38,344 nucleotides of DNA from a virus (lineage: Duplodnaviria > Heunggongvirae > Uroviricota > Caudoviricetes), in the IMG/VR virus record IMGVR_UViG_2740892016_000005; one strand, written 5' to 3'. Below are positions 1,505 to 36,311 of this stretch, piece after piece. Each line of letters opens with the position of its first letter. Position 1 is the stretch's first letter. The notes under the pieces are model-generated. The model made no database searches, was not told the DNA's origin, and saw nothing but the letters and a program-made list of their open reading frames with translations. Both the position numbers and the translations under genes were made by a program.

Positions 1505-1993
1505 ATGAGTCTTTTGAATGACGTTCAGAAATTCATTGAAGCCCATCCGGGGTGTACTTCCGGAGACATTGCGGATGCTTTTGCAGGTTACTCACGGCAG
1601 CGCGTTCTGCAGTCAGCAAGCAAGTTACGTCAGAGTGGTCGTGTGGCTCACCGTTGTGAAGGGGATACACGCAGACATTTCCCGCGCCTGACTGAGAGAG
1701 CGCAGGAGGCGGAACCGCAACCAGTTCGTGAAACCAGACCTGTGCGCAATTTCTATGTCGGCACTAACGACCCGCGGGAGATTTTGTGCCTGACCCGCCA
1801 GGCTGAAGAACTGGAGTCCAGGGGCTTATACCGTCGTGCTGCAACCGTGTGGATGGCGGCATTCCGTGAAAGCCACTCCCAGCCAGAACGAAACAATTTT
1901 CTGGCGCGTCGTGAGCGGTGCTTACGGAAAAGCAGCAAGCGCGCTGCATCGGGTGAAGAGTGGTATCTGTCAGGGAATTACGTGGGGGCTTAA
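1505..1993 (+). CDS. Putative transcriptional regulator with PerC-like C-terminal motif
   Basis: ORF 1499..1993 trimmed to ATG 1505 (RBS gggggtga; GTG at 1499 overlaps the upstream stop). Motif LESRGLYRRAATVWMAAF resembles the PerC/Pch-family signature as recalled from memory; the N-terminal region looks winged-helix-like. Confidence 0.5.
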   Translation: MSLLNDVQKFIEAHPGCTSGDIADAFAGYSRQRVLQSASKLRQSGRVAHRCEGDTRRHFPRLTERAQEAEPQPVRETRPVRNFYVGTNDPREILCLTRQAEELESRGLYRRAATVWMAAFRESHSQPERNNFLARRERCLRKSSKRAASGEEWYLSGNYVGA

Positions 1994-2646
1994 TGAGTAA
2001 TAAATATTGCCAGGCGCTGGTGGAGCTGCGGAACAAACCAGCCCATGAACTGAAGGAAGTGGGCGATCAGTGGCGCACGCCGGACAACATTTTCTGGGGA
2101 ATTAACACCCTGTTTGGCCCGTTTGTTCTGGATCTGTTTACTGACGGTGATAACGCCAAATGTGCCGCGTATTACACGGCGGAAGATAACGCGCTGGCGC
2201 ATGACTGGTCAGAACGTCTTGCGGAGCTTAAAGGTGCTGCCTTTGGTAATCCCCCATACAGCCGCGCCAGTCAGCATGAGGGGCAATACATCACCGGCAT
2301 GCGTTACATCATGAAACATGCCAGTGCCATGCGTGATAAGGGCGGGCGCTATGTTTTCCTGATCAAAGCTGCCACCAGCGAAGTGTGGTGGCCGGAAGAT
2401 GCGGACCATATTGCTTTTATTCGCGGGCGTATTGGTTTTGAACTGCCTGCCTGGTTTATCCCGAAGGATGAGAAGCAGGTGCCGACAGGCGCTTTCTTCG
2501 CTGGTGCTATTGCTGTTTTCGACAAGACCTGGAAGGGACCGGCAATCAGCTACATCGGGCGCGATGAACTTGAGGCATGTGGTGAAGCCTTTCTGGTGCA
2601 GGTTCGCCAGCAGGCAGAAAAACTGGTCAGGGAGATGGCGGCATGA
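1993..2646 (+). CDS. Phage Dam-like DNA N6-adenine methyltransferase
   Basis: ATG 1993 overlaps the upstream TAA; ORF track extends to 1960. NPPY catalytic motif (GNPPYS); overall resemblance to phage Dam family proteins of lambdoid nin regions. Confidence 0.8.
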   Translation: MSNKYCQALVELRNKPAHELKEVGDQWRTPDNIFWGINTLFGPFVLDLFTDGDNAKCAAYYTAEDNALAHDWSERLAELKGAAFGNPPYSRASQHEGQYITGMRYIMKHASAMRDKGGRYVFLIKAATSEVWWPEDADHIAFIRGRIGFELPAWFIPKDEKQVPTGAFFAGAIAVFDKTWKGPAISYIGRDELEACGEAFLVQVRQQAEKLVREMAA

Positions 2647-2969
2647 CGACGTTAACTCAATGCCAGCAGCAGGTGCTGGATATGCTGATTTCTTATCAGA
2701 AAGAACGTGGCTTCCCGCCAACCAATCAGGAGGTGGCAACCATGCTGGGATACCGTTCAGTGAATGCAGCGGTAGAACATCTTCGCGCACTGGAGAAAAA
2801 AGGCGTCATCACGATAAAGCGTGGCGTGGCCCGGGGCATCACGCTTCATACCGCGGTGAAGGACGACGACAGCGAGGCGGTCGGGATTATCCGCTCACTG
2901 CTTGTCGGTGAGGAAAACGCCAGGCTGCGTGCAGCCCACTGGTTACATGAGAGGGGCCTGAAAGTATGA
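2643..2969 (+). CDS. LexA N-terminal DNA-binding-domain-like protein lacking the S24 peptidase domain
   Basis: 108 aa; LTQCQQQVLDMLISYQKERGFPPTNQEVATMLGYRSVNAAVEHLRALEKKGVITIKRGVARGITL aligns by eye with the E. coli LexA N-terminal domain ([55 protein letters not shown]...). No Ser/Lys protease domain follows. ATGA overlap with Dam stop. Confidence 0.6.
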   Translation: MTTLTQCQQQVLDMLISYQKERGFPPTNQEVATMLGYRSVNAAVEHLRALEKKGVITIKRGVARGITLHTAVKDDDSEAVGIIRSLLVGEENARLRAAHWLHERGLKV

Positions 2970-3355
2970 AGCTGATCCTGCCTTTTCCGCCCAGCGTGAA
3001 CACGTACTGGCGACACCCCAACAAAGGGGCGTTTGCTGGTAAGAGTCTGATAAGCGCGGCGGGGCGAAAATTCCAGAGCGCGGCGTGCGCAGCAATAGTT
3101 GAGCAGTTACGTCGTCTGCCGAAACCAACGTCGGCACCTGCTTCAGTGGAGATCGTGTTGTTTCCTCCGGATAACCGGATCCGCGATCTGGACAACTATA
3201 ACAAGGCGCTGTTTGACGCCCTGACCCACGCGGGGGTGTGGGAAGACGACAGTCAGGTGAAAAGAATGCTGGTGGAGTGGGGACCGGTTATCCCGGAAGG
3301 GAAGGTCGAGATCACTATCAGTAAGTATGAGAAACCGGCGGGTGCAGCCGCCTGA
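2966..3355 (+). CDS. rusA: RusA-family Holliday junction resolvase
   Basis: 129 aa; LPFPPSVNTYWRH...RDLDNYNKALFDALTHAGVWEDDSQV matches the RusA pattern (PWPPSNNRYYRH...[26 protein letters not shown]). ATGA overlap with upstream gene. Confidence 0.85.
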   Translation: MKLILPFPPSVNTYWRHPNKGAFAGKSLISAAGRKFQSAACAAIVEQLRRLPKPTSAPASVEIVLFPPDNRIRDLDNYNKALFDALTHAGVWEDDSQVKRMLVEWGPVIPEGKVEITISKYEKPAGAAA

Positions 3356-3374: not shown

Positions 3375-4184
3375 ATGAATAATCTGATGGTCATTGATGG
3401 TATTGAAGTTCGTCGTGATGCTTATGGGCGTTACAGCCTGAACGATCTGCATCGCGCAGCAGTAGCATCTGGTGCAAATGCCAGAACCAAGGAGCCAGGA
3501 AAGTTTCTTTCCAGCCAACAAACTGTTGAGCTTGTTCATGAGTTGACCAACACCCAGAATTTGGGTGTTGACCCGGTGAGTGTGATTCATGGGGGAAATG
3601 AACGGGGAACGTATGTCTGCAAAGAACTGGTGTATGCCTATGCAATGTGGATCAGCCCGTCATTCCATCTGAAGGTGATCCGTACTTTCGATATGGTAAC
3701 CAGCACACCGGAAAAATTATCCGGGCAGGCTGCTGACAAGATGCAGGCTGGCGTGATCCTGCTGGACTTTATGCGCCGGGAGTTAAACCTGTCTAACTCT
3801 TCAGTGCTTGGTGCCTGTCAGAAACTCCAGGAGGCTGTTGGCTTACCGAATCTGGCACCGCGCTATGCCATTGATGCTCCTGCTGACGCGCCTGATGGCT
3901 CAAGCCGCCCCACGCTGTCACTGAGTGCACTGCTGAAGCAGTATGGTATCCGCCTGACAGCTAATCAGGCATATCACCAGATGGTGAAACTGGGGATCGT
4001 CGAGCAGCGCGAACGATACAGTCGTACCGCGATTAACAACATCAAAAAATTCTGGTCGCTGACAGCGAAAGGCTGCATGTTCGGCAAGAACATCACCAGT
4101 CCCGCAAATCCGCGCGAGACGCAGCCGCATTTCTTCGAATCCCGATTCCCTGAGCTGTTAAAGCTGCTCGATACCGTTCATTGA
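3375..4184 (+). CDS. KilA-N domain protein (antirepressor-like)
   Basis: 269 aa; N-terminal region (IDGIEVRRDAYGRYSLNDLHRAAVASG...) fits the KilA-N DNA-binding domain; RBS aggag upstream. Confidence 0.7.
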   Translation: MNNLMVIDGIEVRRDAYGRYSLNDLHRAAVASGANARTKEPGKFLSSQQTVELVHELTNTQNLGVDPVSVIHGGNERGTYVCKELVYAYAMWISPSFHLKVIRTFDMVTSTPEKLSGQAADKMQAGVILLDFMRRELNLSNSSVLGACQKLQEAVGLPNLAPRYAIDAPADAPDGSSRPTLSLSALLKQYGIRLTANQAYHQMVKLGIVEQRERYSRTAINNIKKFWSLTAKGCMFGKNITSPANPRETQPHFFESRFPELLKLLDTVH

Positions 4185-5742: not shown

Positions 5743-7194
5743 TTATTTTATTTTGCTTACTATATTTGTAATAAGTGGGTCAAATTTCTCATCAATAATT
5801 TCAATATATTTTTTTATTGCTAAAGTTCTAATTACTTCCTCCTCACATTCTGCTTCTTTAGCAATTGCTTGAGTGTAATTGTGATGATCACTAATCCCTT
5901 CCTTTTTTATTAACCAATCAAAATCAATATGATACTCCTTGTAGAGGAATTTTTTTACTTCCTCATGTTGAAATACTTCTACTTCTGGTGGCCTATTGCC
6001 AGGGAAAGAAAATAAATCATCTTTAATGTTTTCTCCAACATCTGCATCTCTTACGGCAATAACATTAAGGCCTGCTTTCTTGAATACCTCGACTGCTTGT
6101 CGGACTGCATCTTTATCTCCAATATCAGTGATTTGAATGGATTTAAGAATGTCTCTCCGCTTTGCTCTAATTACTTCACTAAGTAAAACTTTTGCAAACT
6201 GGTCTTCTACGCAAATATGCAGCCCTTTAAACTGCCCATCAGACAGTATTGATCTCACATGAGTTGTTGAAATTCCATCTTTGATATAGACACCAGTCTG
6301 ATCTCTAATAAGTAATTTTCGTGCATCAGGAGGTAAAGCATTTAATATCACACTTGAGTGTGTTGATAATATTATTTGATGTTTTCTACGTTGACATACT
6401 TCCATTAAATATTTTGCAAATTCATACTGTGCGCTTTCATGAAGAGATGTTTCTGGTTCTTCTAGTACGAAAAGACTTTGCTCTGGAGCTGTTTCAAGCA
6501 TATCAACCGTATAAAGAACTCTTCCTTCGCCAAACCCCATGTTATTTTCAGAATAAGAATACCCAAGTCTTTCAACAATACCAATTTCTGAACGACGTGC
6601 TCTATGAGAAATTCCTTGGAATGCGATATCATCATATGGATGACCTATTATTTTTGCCATCTTCAATATTACTGAATGGTCGACGCTTCTTCTCTCTGTT
6701 AAATCAAAGTCTTTACCGCCATAAACACTTATATCTCTACGTTCTACTTTTGGAATATAGACAGTAAAACCAATGTAAAAACAGTGTCTTTCTGGTTGTC
6801 TTTTATATCCAGACCAAGAAGACTTTATGCGAGTGACAGTCACATCTTGTGTTTTCGTTGAATCATTTGTTTCATATTTATAAATGACACTGGCGTCATT
6901 ATCGAAAGGGGCTGGATCGGCTTTAGATACAGGGAAAAAATCTTTAATATATAATCTCTTATATTCACGGGCTGTAACTGGTTTTTTATATGCGCATATT
7001 GCTAACTGCCCAAGAGTGCTTTTCCCAGCGCCGTTTAGCCCTGATATTGCAGTTACCGGAAAATTTATATTTAATGTTAGTTTTTTTATTCCTCGAAATC
7101 CATTTATCTCTAGACTTTTAATTACGGAGCCAAAGTTTGAGTATCTATTTTTATCAAAGTACATGCATTTTAGTATATTTTTTATGTCTGACAT
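5743..7194 (-). CDS. ABC-type (AAA_15/21-like) ATPase with C-terminal TOPRIM-like domain; OLD/PARIS-like candidate defence nuclease
   Basis: 483 aa. Walker A GLNGAGKST; Walker B/D-loop SLFVLEEPETSLH; H-loop ILSTHSS; C-terminal acidic motifs LHICVEDQ and VIAVRDADVGE consistent with TOPRIM. Gene is AT-rich relative to flanks; RBS aggaaag; own promoter-like signals. Confidence 0.85.
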   Translation of the reverse strand: MSDIKNILKCMYFDKNRYSNFGSVIKSLEINGFRGIKKLTLNINFPVTAISGLNGAGKSTLGQLAICAYKKPVTAREYKRLYIKDFFPVSKADPAPFDNDASVIYKYETNDSTKTQDVTVTRIKSSWSGYKRQPERHCFYIGFTVYIPKVERRDISVYGGKDFDLTERRSVDHSVILKMAKIIGHPYDDIAFQGISHRARRSEIGIVERLGYSYSENNMGFGEGRVLYTVDMLETAPEQSLFVLEEPETSLHESAQYEFAKYLMEVCQRRKHQIILSTHSSVILNALPPDARKLLIRDQTGVYIKDGISTTHVRSILSDGQFKGLHICVEDQFAKVLLSEVIRAKRRDILKSIQITDIGDKDAVRQAVEVFKKAGLNVIAVRDADVGENIKDDLFSFPGNRPPEVEVFQHEEVKKFLYKEYHIDFDWLIKKEGISDHHNYTQAIAKEAECEEEVIRTLAIKKYIEIIDEKFDPLITNIVSKIK

Positions 7195-7273: not shown

Positions 7274-7458
7274 TGATTGGGTAAATATCGTGCATTTGTT
7301 GTTTTAAAATCAACCAAGAATGATTTTTATAATTATGTCAATTGCCTTATTATCAATATGGTAATGTTTTCTCAATCTAATTATTGCGGGGAATATATTA
7401 TTTACAATCGTAAATAATCAGATATGCTCTCAAGAGTGGTTACTTCGCCACACAACTT

Positions 7459-7484
7459 AAACCCGCCGTCGAGCGGGTTTTTTT
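7459..7484 (+). terminator. Intrinsic terminator
   Basis: AAACCCGC-cgtcga-GCGGGTTT stem-loop (8-bp stem) followed by a run of 7 T. Confidence 0.6.
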
Positions 7485-7801: not shown

Positions 7802-7950
7802 AGGACTTTTAATTTGTGAAAATGGGCGGCTGGTGGGTGTTGGTAGCACCTGCCAGCCATTCGCTCATGCTTACTGGTCACAAGCGAACCACGGCCCACT
7901 GCTTTAGCGCAAAAGCAGAGTGAGCCTACCAGAGTTACGCTTACTGATCC

Positions 7951-32468: not shown

Positions 32469-32737
32469 TGCGGGATATAACATTACGGTTCGATAACAGA
32501 GAACAGTTTAACGCAATTGTATATGACAGTGGCCTGTTCAGTCTTGAAGAAGAAAACGGGGTTCTTGTTGATGTTATTGGCTGCATTATCGATTACGAGG
32601 AGCCAGAAAACGAAAGATGTACAGGCATTGATCGCGGTGGTTTTTTCGTAAACATGAGGATTGTTGATAGCAGTAAAAACATATCTTCTTTAATGCCTTT
32701 CATTACGACAGATCAGCATGTAAGGACATGGGCTTAA
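32468..32737 (+). CDS. Hypothetical protein (tail-fibre accessory?)
   Basis: 89 aa; ATG overlaps the stf stop (TAATG); no motif recognised. Confidence 0.45.
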   Translation: MRDITLRFDNREQFNAIVYDSGLFSLEEENGVLVDVIGCIIDYEEPENERCTGIDRGGFFVNMRIVDSSKNISSLMPFITTDQHVRTWA

Positions 32738-32749
32738 TGGAGTAAGACA

Positions 32750-33433
32750 ATGGTTACAAAAACAGTAATTCCGGGAGACATCACCACGCTAAAGGGAGAT
32801 ATTTCCTCAATTAACGGAAAAGTATCAACGCTTCAGACTGAGATGACCAGTGCAAAGCAGGATATCAGCTCCAGATACACAAAAACTGAAGTTGATAATA
32901 AGCTGAAAAACAAAGTGGAAGTGAACGATCTGGAAAGTGGTCGTTATGGCGGAGATTTTTATCCACTGACAGGTCGTGAAGCGTTTTATTTATGGAATTT
33001 GGCCACGACTACAGCGGCGGCAAACCTTTATCTTAATCCTGACCCTGCAATTTCGTCTGTGCTGCGGTCAACATCGTCTATCCGCTATAAACATTCAGTA
33101 GAGACGATAGATTCAGAGCACGCCGATCTCATTTTCAAGATGCGCCCTGTGTGGTACAGGTCGCAATGCGAAAATGACAGGCGCGATTGGGGATTCTATG
33201 GATTGATTGCCGAGGAAGTAGGAGAAATTGCCCCCCAGTTTGTACACTGGCGATCAGCTAACGAAGATGATGCACCGGAAGCTATTTCCAGCAATGGCCT
33301 TGTTGCCGAAGGTGTAATGTACGAACGTCTGGTTGTTCCACTGATTCACCATATCCAGAAACTGACTGAAAGAGTTGATGAACTTGAGTCAGAATTGAAG
33401 TTGTTATCAACTTCCCGAAGCGATATCGGATAA
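32750..33433 (+). CDS. Short tail fibre/spike-like protein with C-terminal S74-type intramolecular chaperone domain
   Basis: 227 aa; C-terminal ~120 aa (SSIRYKHSVETID...DLIFKMRPVWY...GFYGLIAEEVGEIAPQFV...VMYERLVVPLIHHIQKLTERVDELESELKLL) follow the pattern of endosialidase-type autoproteolytic chaperone domains. Confidence 0.7.
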   Translation: MVTKTVIPGDITTLKGDISSINGKVSTLQTEMTSAKQDISSRYTKTEVDNKLKNKVEVNDLESGRYGGDFYPLTGREAFYLWNLATTTAAANLYLNPDPAISSVLRSTSSIRYKHSVETIDSEHADLIFKMRPVWYRSQCENDRRDWGFYGLIAEEVGEIAPQFVHWRSANEDDAPEAISSNGLVAEGVMYERLVVPLIHHIQKLTERVDELESELKLLSTSRSDIG

Positions 33434-34532: not shown

Positions 34533-36311
34533 TCACCCCCTAGATCTTGCTGAAAGCTCATCTTTATAAGCCATTCTTGGCGTGTAAAAATTATGGAATG
34601 CCTTACCTATTGCACCATTGAAAAGCTTAAGCAATGGTTTATTGCTCCCTGCGTTTAAAATATTCCTCATTGCTATACCAGGGTATGGATCTATGTAATA
34701 TATTTGTTTGATCCCTAATTGATACGCTTTTTTAGAACATAATTCACAAGGGCTTGCTGTTGTGAACAAAAAACCATTCTGTATACCAACGCCACCATAC
34801 TTAGATATTTGTAAGAAAGCATTCTCTTCAGCATGAAGTGATCTTGTAAAAACTTGATTAGCGTTAGATTTTATTTTGTCAATAATAGCAAACTCATCAT
34901 CATTTAACTTATGTTCGACCCGTAGATCTTCTTTGTATTTATCATCAAGGATATTATTCCATTCTGTTTTAAAACAAAATGGAGCTCTCATTCCTTTATT
35001 TTTAACATCTAAAAAAATAATCTTAGTGCTATCTATTTTTCGAATGAAACTATTTTCGTTCTTTTCGAATTCAGAGTAAGCAATATCATCAATCCCCTCA
35101 GACAAATCAAACCTATCCCTTAAAGAGCAAGGAACTTGACCACTTGGTACATCATTCCAACCAATAGACTTAATTGAAAATGAACTATCAGATACTGCAG
35201 CGCCTACCTGCCTGGATATACAACCAGAGTTCAACTTAGCTGTATATGCTATCTGCATGCAACGTTCAACATTTGATGGAGTTATTATACCAGGACGCTT
35301 CATTAATGAAGTGAATTTAATTAATTGATTAGCCAATCCTGAGTACCGACAAACAACATTTTCCTCTTCCGGATTCTCAACATAGATGTCTGATATTTCT
35401 AAACAAGACTGTATATTCTGATATATATATGATGACTTCTCATCCAAAGATGATTTACGGTATTCTTTTGCATCAATATCTTTTATCTCAGCATCAGTTA
35501 AACCTTGTTCTCTAAGCCTTTGATGCCTGTAATGCTCTTCTGTAGAAACAGCCATTAAATAAAATGATGAGTATCTATCTTGGAAGTATGTTGCTTCGAA
35601 CGGATTTCTTATAGCATCAATAACTATATAAATAGGTTTCTTTTCTCCAGTTTTTGTGTTCTTTTCTTTTGCTAAGGTTCTTAATCTTTGAATTATATCA
35701 TTTATTTTTTTAGGAAGAAAAAAACCATGGAAATCATCACTAAATGAACTGTCATGGTACATCCCACTAGATCTATAATTATTACCTATAGCTTGATATA
35801 GCTTTATATAGTCAGCCTTGTTCTTAAATATGGATTTAATTTGTGTATTCGCTTTTATTAGATATTCATTTATGAATTTTATCTTATCATCTATATCATG
35901 ATCAGAGCTTTCATCTTTAGCTTTAATTTCTTTTAGTATAGATTCAAGATCATTAACTGTTGACTCTAGGACTCTTTGGTCATTACCTAACTCCGTCACT
36001 TCCCGAATAAATTTATTCAGCTTACCATCAAAGTCCTTTGATAAACACAATGTCAGTATGGAACTTGCTTGTATTTTTATAAATGGAACCCATGACACGG
36101 AAAAATATTTAAATAGAACCCGCTCTTTTCTTTCTTCATTCGACTTAGGGTAATCACCGTTAAATAGAGAATGCTTTATCTCACTTGATTCTGATGACAG
36201 TATATTAGAAACTGTTGAACAGCCTGACCCCGTCCTCCCTGTTAATCCTATAATTAGGAAATCATCATCTTCACTATATATTTTACTCAGTGCGTCATTA
36301 TAAAAACCCAT
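34533..36311 (-). CDS. P-loop NTPase / dCMP-deaminase fusion protein; AvcD/DCD-like candidate nucleotide-depletion defence
   Basis: 592 aa. N-terminal deviant P-loop GLTGRTGSGCST; C-terminal deaminase motifs ERCMQIAYTAKLNSGCISRQVGAAV, HAEENA and PCELC (zinc ligands). AT-rich; RBS ggag; own promoter-like -10. Confidence 0.9.
   Translation of the reverse strand: MGFYNDALSKIYSEDDDFLIIGLTGRTGSGCSTVSNILSSESSEIKHSLFNGDYPKSNEERKERVLFKYFSVSWVPFIKIQASSILTLCLSKDFDGKLNKFIREVTELGNDQRVLESTVNDLESILKEIKAKDESSDHDIDDKIKFINEYLIKANTQIKSIFKNKADYIKLYQAIGNNYRSSGMYHDSSFSDDFHGFFLPKKINDIIQRLRTLAKEKNTKTGEKKPIYIVIDAIRNPFEATYFQDRYSSFYLMAVSTEEHYRHQRLREQGLTDAEIKDIDAKEYRKSSLDEKSSYIYQNIQSCLEISDIYVENPEEENVVCRYSGLANQLIKFTSLMKRPGIITPSNVERCMQIAYTAKLNSGCISRQVGAAVSDSSFSIKSIGWNDVPSGQVPCSLRDRFDLSEGIDDIAYSEFEKNENSFIRKIDSTKIIFLDVKNKGMRAPFCFKTEWNNILDDKYKEDLRVEHKLNDDEFAIIDKIKSNANQVFTRSLHAEENAFLQISKYGGVGIQNGFLFTTASPCELCSKKAYQLGIKQIYYIDPYPGIAMRNILNAGSNKPLLKLFNGAIGKAFHNFYTPRMAYKDELSARSRG

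Follow-up and report, generated by a model that had tools for sequence, protein, structure and literature searches.

An open reading frame in a lambdoid prophage of Escherichia coli is best explained as a functional accessory gene of the prophage, one that encodes a LexA-type DNA-binding domain extended by a conserved helical tail. The gene, referred to here as the lexA-like gene, occupies positions 2643..2969 on the + strand of a window of 38,344 nucleotides, the whole stretch of DNA that was analysed (IMG/VR record IMGVR_UViG_2740892016_000005). It starts with ATG, encodes 108 amino acids, belongs to PHROG 362 and is identical to RefSeq WP_000210173.1. The protein descends from the N-terminal domain of LexA and would work like that domain, with the binding itself putative. 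As for its role, we assign a probability of roughly 40% to a delayed-early, uncleavable and tail-dimerised LexA-type protein that would re-occupy SOS-type operators once the LexA of the host has been destroyed.

Domain architecture and predicted structure

The winged helix-turn-helix domain covers residues 1-68 (2643..2846, +) and is homologous to LexA residues 1-69. Residues 1-65 match the Pfam profile PF01726 (LexA_DNA_bind) over its full length (positions 1-65 of 65, E 2.9e-19), with a score of 69 bits and a cut-off of 23.7. In phmmer, the alignment with residues 2-70 of E. coli LexA (1lea and 1jhh) is gapless at ∼50% identity, and the E value against 1lea is 7e-16. The recognition helix was located by the alignment with LexA at residues 39-52, SVNAAVEHLRALEK (2757..2798, +), and the recognition-helix string RSVNAAVEHLRAL falls inside the gapless stretch, opposite its LexA counterpart.

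Structure prediction gives the same picture. The AF2 model, for which the input alignment contained 14 family members, has a mean pLDDT of 80.5 and a pTM of 0.55, and the winged helix is composed of three helices and two strands (H6-22, H28-35, H40-52, E56-58, E66-68). The top Foldseek match of the model is the LexA-DNA complex 3jso_B, which superposes with an rmsd of 1.0 Å over 68 columns at 50% identity, a likeness well above anything expected by chance. An earlier note, made from the letters of this DNA, had claimed that the protein mirrors the winged helix-turn-helix of LexA with its recognition helix, and the complete PF01726 match, the identity to LexA and the superposition all confirm this. 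Past the winged helix, the model predicts a low-confidence linker (residues 71-75) and then a helical hairpin of residues 74-87 and 93-103 (2862..2951, +), which occupies the place of the S24 domain. The tail is predicted with a block pLDDT of 87 for residues 81-100.

The Pfam search found no match to Peptidase_S24 in the protein, which stops at residue 108. Because the downstream rusA gene starts 4 bases before the lexA-like stop, a decayed protease domain has no room. The same note's description of a chain of ∼108 residues in which a short helical tail replaces the S24 peptidase domain therefore holds, on the Pfam result, the rusA overlap and the AF2 helices. The NCBIfam equivalog model for LexA, TIGR00498, aligned over positions 1-91 of 203 only and reached 67.8 bits against a cut-off of 110.95. 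Since the protein has no S24 domain and stays below this cut-off, it is not a LexA; its RefSeq product name in E. coli Z247 is 'LexA family transcriptional regulator'. PADLOC returned no defence-system membership for the protein. With the domain for the Ser119/Lys156 protease, dimerisation and RecA* contact absent, there is no inactivation by the route that LexA follows.

The C-terminal domain of LexA serves dimerisation, self-cleavage and the interface with RecA*, and dimerisation-defective LexA cannot bind its targets (PMC3159453). The isolated N-terminal domain of LexA is reported to keep SOS-box binding and repression, hence the need for its removal by ClpXP (PMC10584840). The tail of the phage protein, a conserved amphipathic hairpin of ∼35 residues, is a candidate replacement for the lost dimer interface. 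Its hydrophobic pattern (I82/I83/L86/L87/A93/A97/W100/L101) is kept in the family alignments down to 38-47% identity. Proteins that lack S24 and carry two tandem LexA_DNA_bind domains also exist, which fits the need for two such domains per operator.

A MAFFT alignment sets the stretch LLVGEE (LLAGEE in most family members) opposite VAAGEP of LexA, around Ala84-Gly85. This stretch is predicted to be helical in the AF2 model, the motif is lost in more distant relatives, and a catalytic domain that could use it in cis is absent. The idea that the tail preserves the A84-G85 site of LexA as a pseudo-substrate was considered and dropped, as AGE is not conserved in distant relatives.

Genomic setting

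A prophage in E. coli Z247 (NZ_CP021207.1) that adjoins tRNA-Thr and proA matches the window at 100% identity, and the element is a lambdoid prophage integrated at thrW of this strain. The rightward gene run encodes, in order, a replication-initiator-like HTH protein, a PerC-family protein, Dam, the lexA-like protein, RusA, a KilA-N protein, a DUF968/HNH protein and the antiterminator Q. Directly upstream of the lexA-like gene is the gene for the phage Dam methyltransferase (1960..2646, +; Pfam Dam, E 1.1e-45), and directly downstream is rusA (2966..3355, +; Pfam RusA). Overlaps of four bases (ATGA) join the gene to its neighbours at both ends, the dam stop with the lexA-like start at 2643-2646 and the lexA-like stop with the rusA start at 2966-2969. 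The gene lies between the replication genes and Q and is translationally coupled to its neighbours, and there is no noncoding DNA beside it.

The neighbourhood is conserved to different degrees in relatives. Adjacency to rusA is kept in SfV, in mEp390 (47% amino acid identity), in Citrobacter (64%) and in Salmonella (86%), and 73 of the 80 viral contigs bearing this rusA allele contain the lexA-like gene. The dam gene is optional, with PerC immediately upstream of the lexA-like gene in SfIV and in a Citrobacter prophage. SfIV has a rusA pseudogene next to an intact lexA-like gene, and Klebsiella phage ST846-OXA48phi9.1 has a DinI gene two genes upstream of it. Sister prophages without the lexA-like gene indicate that it is dispensable. 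As the gene lies in a mosaic module and has no adjacent intergenic DNA, its product, as a trans-acting factor, is most simply seen as aimed at ever-present targets, for example the SOS boxes of the host.

Distribution and conservation of the family

The profile of PHROG 362 ('transcriptional repressor') matches residues 1-108 over positions 1-106 of 106 (E 5.4e-59). The protein is a full member of this catalogued and uncharacterised PHROG 362 / SfV Orf42 family, and the gene is not new. It was found in 2233 of 5426 complete E. coli genomes (∼41%) at 95-100% nucleotide identity, in at most 4 copies per genome, and in 50 phage records. Copies with 96-100% identity are carried by SfV (orf42), SfII, SfIV, mEp460, cdtI, 1720a-02 and phages encoding Stx2a, Stx2c and Stx2k. 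The original SfV record annotates orf42 as 'unknown'. A 'pham 237' with pfam01726 as its only domain was described in 15 Stx phages by Pinto et al. 2021 (PMC8136144), and it is probably the same family. The 'bully phage' 1720a-02 also carries the gene, and the paper on that phage credits its interference to Cro. Full-text literature searches returned no functional or experimental study of the PHROG 362 / SfV Orf42 family.

Homologues of 104-108 amino acids are present in Salmonella, Citrobacter and Hafnia. A profile search against 1.8 billion representatives added further proteins of ∼105-135 amino acids, which share 38-47% identity and match through the tail. Compared with its Salmonella orthologue, the gene has a dN/dS of 0.137 overall, 0.043 in the winged helix and 0.27 in the tail. 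From these sequence ratios, the gene is judged to be real and under purifying selection, most strongly in the recognition domain.

DNA-contact residues

LexA contacts DNA through Ser39, Asn41, Ala42, Glu44 and Glu45 (PMC3091678). Four of these five residues are kept in the alignment with the phage protein (S39, N41, A42 and E45), and the fifth, E44, is replaced by V. The protein also has P40V relative to E. coli LexA. Among tail-bearing relatives, the residue at position 44 of the family alignment is hydrophobic or small and never Glu; the true LexA fragments aligned with them retain Glu-Glu. The Citrobacter branch additionally changes A42, A43 and E45. The replacement of E44 and these further changes suggest that specificity may have drifted, and not uniformly across the family. 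S39, N41, A42 and E45 are kept throughout the E. coli/Shigella/Salmonella subfamily, and the helix YRSVNAAVEHLRALEKK is identical in 70 of the 72 viral-contig copies that were scored.

SOS boxes in the prophage and its relatives

SOS boxes were scored with a position weight matrix of 25 E. coli boxes, and all bit scores given here are approximate. The exact motif CTGT-N8-ACAG occurs once in the window, at 7961-7976 (0.37 expected by chance). It lies within the box TACTGTAAAAATAAACAGTG (7959..7978, no strand), which spans codons 3-9 of an ORF for an N6/N4 DNA methyltransferase (7951..9003). Ahead of this ORF come the Q gene, a promoter-like site (7401-7428) and a terminator (7459-7480). The box scores 22.6 bits, compared with a median of 20.3 for known boxes and a maximum of 20.2 in 200 shuffles. 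Its sequence makes it a candidate operator that host LexA, and possibly the lexA-like protein as well, would bind. A scan with the 20-mer SOS consensus at up to 3 mismatches gave no match, the box at 7959-7978 having 4 mismatches. For CTGT...ACAG palindromes with spacings of 0-20, no spacing was enriched in the window. CTGT and CAG of the methyltransferase box are invariant, synonymous third positions included, in 9 phages of 5 genera (Escherichia, Klebsiella, Citrobacter, Hafnia and Morganella) with 70-99% DNA identity.

A second box, TACTGTTTTTATATACAGTA, scores 26.8 bits and lies within the cI-like repressor gene of the prophage, ∼0.9 kb beyond the left end of the window. Its reverse complement equals the umuDC operator. 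The cI box is kept at 21-25 bits in mEp460, 1720a-02, Salmonella ST64B, Klebsiella P7641 and Escherichia phage Flotzy, and the linker residues that it encodes vary. In SfIV, a box of 23.3 bits falls in the intergenic promoter region that precedes kilA-N, and the lexA-like gene lies 440 bp upstream of this box. A scan of the prophage for SOS boxes had been proposed in the earlier note, and it did turn up conserved boxes, at the methyltransferase ORF and in cI. We also considered an SOS-inducible transcript that the cI box would drive and that would encode a C-terminal fragment of CI. This was dropped, since the in-frame Met is not conserved (Ile in ST64B) and a simple scan showed no promoter.

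A survey of the 80 viral contigs that carry this rusA allele covered 1.35 Mb of flanking DNA and counted 57 boxes with scores of 17 bits or more; 49 of the 80 contigs had at least one. Nearly all of the 57 are cI and methyltransferase boxes, so this contig sample is heavily redundant by descent.

The boxes and the gene occur independently of each other. Phages without the lexA-like gene (phiP27, Stx2a_14040, LLS, phiNP, ST64B, P7641 and Flotzy) conserve the methyltransferase and cI boxes just as well, and three contigs have a boxed cI and rusA and no lexA-like gene. Citrobacter prophages and mEp390 carry the gene, and no box was seen in the 9-10 kb examined per locus. Strict co-occurrence of the gene with phage SOS boxes is therefore rejected. 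Because the boxes are also present in phages without the gene, they do not depend on it and are primarily sites for host LexA, to which the gene comes as an optional extra. All 10 phages among the matches listed whose cI is at least 92% identical to that of this prophage carry the lexA-like gene, and this association may be linkage by descent. In a group of phages wired to LexA-type operators, a phage-encoded LexA domain is meaningful, and its own use of the boxes stays putative.

Explanations for the function of the gene

In the reading that we favour, the lexA-like gene would be a delayed-early gene that is read rightward from the early promoter during induction or infection. The hairpin would provide the dimer contact, and the dimer would bind operators of the CTGT-N8-ACAG type, which would include the SOS boxes of the host and the LexA operators of the phages themselves. 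Without self-cleavage and without a ...VAA end, the protein would outlast host LexA. Repression could then be re-imposed in lytic growth, on host SOS functions, on LexA-controlled modules of rival prophages, or on LexA-gated genes of the phage itself. The earlier note had suggested an uncleavable LexA mimic that occupies SOS boxes and tunes host SOS or prophage induction. The uncleavable part stands, in that the helix is of the LexA type and the domain for protease, dimerisation and RecA* contact is absent; occupancy of SOS boxes and tuning are a proposal only. Judged on sequence evidence, the mimic is plausible though unproven, with odds somewhat short of even.

Further doubt attaches to a phage-encoded 'SOS off-switch', in which a RecA-insensitive LexA paralogue, borne by prophages of ∼40% of E. 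coli strains, would re-silence the SOS regulon after its own prophage has been induced; we consider this possible and rather unlikely. Its targets would be the host SOS boxes, the operators in cI, in the methyltransferase gene and in the kilA-N promoter, as well as, in rival prophages, the antirepressors under LexA control. If true, such a switch would influence the timing of lysis, the competition of prophages with one another and SOS-dependent mutagenesis.

The main rival is a LexA-derived regulator, activator or repressor, that has its own diverged phage operator and no direct effect on host SOS. The GIL01 protein gp6, which has a palindrome of its own and activates a late promoter (PMC6182141), is a precedent, and the systematic replacement of E44 together with the variation of residues 42-45 among tail-bearing relatives points the same way. 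A new dimer module could moreover alter the spacing of half-sites, and the gene and the SOS boxes each occur without the other. However, the E. coli/Shigella/Salmonella proteins retain four of the five contact residues, with one helix sequence in nearly all scored copies; no CTGT...ACAG palindrome of another spacing is over-represented in the window; and there is no adjacent noncoding DNA to hold a linked operator. Late control, the task that gp6 would suggest, is already explained by the Q antiterminator, the promoter-like site and the terminator, and no palindrome placed like that of gp6 at a late promoter was identified. We rate this rival as a possibility on the unlikely side. The computational evidence cannot distinguish binding to SOS boxes from a private specificity.

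It is improbable that the protein has a role other than transcriptional regulation, be it as a DNA-binding partner that targets or modulates RusA, Dam or the DUF968/HNH nuclease, or as a nucleoid-associated protein. Such a role would account for the invariant adjacency to rusA and the translational coupling across homologues of 47-100% identity, and for the DNA-metabolism proteins encoded by the remaining genes of the block. Yet the lexA-like gene is intact beside the rusA pseudogene of SfIV, dam is optional, and purifying selection is strongest on the domain for sequence-specific recognition.

A functionless remnant in decay, left over from the capture of lexA or from a LexA-like phage repressor, would explain the resemblance to a truncated LexA and a TIGR00498 alignment that reaches residue 91 and so takes in the hinge and the place where LexA is cleaved, but the conservation data exclude such a relic or pseudogene: dN/dS is 0.14, the length is constant at 104-108 amino acids, the tail is conserved down to 38% identity, the full-length PHROG profile itself has 106 positions, and the gene is intact in ∼41% of E. 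coli genomes with a frame that overlaps both neighbours precisely. The probability left over belongs to functions beyond the mimic, the regulator with a diverged operator, the accessory protein and the remnant.

The family has long been catalogued, is very common and is annotated by homology only. Should binding of SOS boxes prove true, nearly half of the sequenced E. coli strains would carry a damage-proof LexA, with serotype-converting phages of Shigella and Stx2a/Stx2c/Stx2k phages among the carriers, and the LexA(Ind-) alleles made in the laboratory would have an equivalent in nature. This would bear on SOS mutagenesis, persistence, the induction of Shiga-toxin phages and the competition of prophages in polylysogens. 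With a private operator instead, the protein would join GIL01 gp6 as a second and independent example of phages that re-use the LexA domain as a regulator of their own.

Comparison with known systems

The protein resembles the LexA(1-84) fragment (1lea, 3jso) in its fold, in ∼50% identity over residues 2-70 and in a near-identical recognition helix. Unlike this fragment, it is the product of a separate phage-borne gene, it has E44V and P40V, and it carries a helical hairpin of 35 residues. Its C-terminus reads ...GLKV, as opposed to the ...VAA left by cleavage of LexA at Ala84. The ...VAA end is reportedly the ClpX tag (Neher et al. 2003).

Non-cleavable LexA mutants give an SOS-non-inducible state. 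By functional analogy, the phage protein is like the LexA3 G85D and S119A mutants (1jhf, 1jhh), LexA-type repressors that RecA* cannot inactivate. These mutants differ in that they keep the C-terminal dimerisation domain and wild-type affinity for the operator, and they are laboratory alleles and not phage genes.

Other mobile elements encode proteins that damp SOS or the inactivation of LexA, namely GIL01 gp7, DinI and PsiB (PMC4551915, PMC6182141). The lexA-like protein shares with them its origin in a mobile element; gp7, DinI and PsiB, however, bind LexA or RecA and not DNA, and are unrelated to it in sequence.

A parallel in design is gp6 of GIL01, a tectivirus of Bacillus thuringiensis. 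It is a truncated LexA homologue with 44% identity to the host LexA domain, and it binds a non-LexA palindrome, GaCACAnnTGTGaC, at about -43.5 of the late promoter P3 and activates P3 (PMC6182141). It is the only characterised phage-encoded truncated LexA homologue cited, and it does not bind LexA boxes (PMC6182141). Both proteins are phage-encoded LexA winged helices without an S24 domain, and gp6 is expressed early in the lytic programme (PMC6182141). They differ in that gp6 derives from Bacillus LexA and has no helical tail, whereas the lexA-like protein derives from enterobacterial LexA, has a tail and contacts of the CTGT type, and belongs to a Q-controlled lambdoid phage. The gp6 family of betatectiviruses has a conserved K38, and residue 38 of the lexA-like protein is R, a comparison made with the published description of gp6. 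Being closest to E. coli LexA (50% identity) and having R38, the lexA-like protein was probably captured independently of gp6, as far as gp6 can be compared by its description.

SOS boxes within coding regions

A strong SOS box lies at 7959-7978 of the window, within the first codons of the late-region ORF 7951..9003, which encodes an N6/N4 DNA methyltransferase. A LexA-type operator sequence here overlaps the beginning of a gene that lies downstream of the late antiterminator gene Q. Synonymous sites in this box are conserved across phages of five genera, and the box is retained alike in phages with and without the lexA-like gene. The untranslated region 5' of the methyltransferase gene is also conserved and contains an inverted repeat, CTGCTTT-AGCGCA-AAAGCAG (7899-7918), which is mostly kept in an alignment of nine phages and may be a structural element of the RNA or the DNA.

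A near-perfect box of 26.8 bits (all scores are approximate; median of known boxes, 20.3) is located in the same prophage to the left of the window, ∼915 bp from its start, in the linker-coding part of a cI-like repressor gene (14799-14818 of the Z247 locus, NZ_CP021207.1 4258798-4258817). Its reverse complement matches the operator of umuDC. The cI homologues of mEp460, 1720a-02, ST64B, Klebsiella P7641, and Flotzy retain the box, while the linker that it encodes varies among them. A simple scan found no sigma-70-like promoter at this box.

SOS boxes and SOS-related genes in related phages

In SfIV (NC_022749.1), whose rusA is broken by a stop codon, the intergenic box TACTGTATTTATGAACAGTA (23.3 bits, 32639-32658) directly precedes the kilA-N gene gp44. 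Because the box is located just upstream of the gene, control of gp44 by LexA is suggested, and the gene product may be antirepressor-like. Four viral contigs contain a fourth recurrent box, TACTGTTTATGCATACAGCA (22.2 bits), which lies downstream of rusA at a distance of ∼3.6 kb, at positions 14026 (L038), 5497 (L043), 14026 (L082), and 12708 (L102). In Klebsiella phage ST846-OXA48phi9.1 (locus L011), the stretch 1-969 includes a DinI gene two genes 5' of the lexA-like homologue. The same locus has a box of 21.8 bits (3994-4013) just 5' of a hypothetical gene that points leftward and is flanked by Q and the holin gene. Within the window, the weaker SOS-like site CAATGGTTACAAAAACAGTA (32748-32767) overlaps the ATG of ORF 32750..33433, which contains a Peptidase_S74 chaperone domain; its score of 14.5 bits is no higher than those that shuffled sequence attains.

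Candidate defence genes

Between Q and the promoter-like site at 7401-7428, and in the opposite orientation, is an inserted gene for a 483-aa AAA_15/AAA_21 ATPase (5743..7194, minus strand), named 'ATP-dependent nuclease' by RefSeq. In PADLOC, the ATPase scores best against HEC-04, a candidate defence protein (E 5e-47), and is probably a moron with an anti-phage defence role. At its right end, the prophage encodes, also on the minus strand, a 592-aa protein with a P-loop and a cytidine/dCMP deaminase domain (34533..36311). The dCTP-deaminase defence model of PADLOC hits this protein at E 2e-127, and its gene is a nucleotide-depletion defence gene.

Tandem LexA domains

Five proteins (P0127, P0129, P0137, P0141, and P0143) carry two LexA_DNA_bind domains in tandem and lack the S24 domain; one of the five is also fused to a PTPS domain. 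They resemble 'single-chain dimers', in which two LexA domains are joined covalently.
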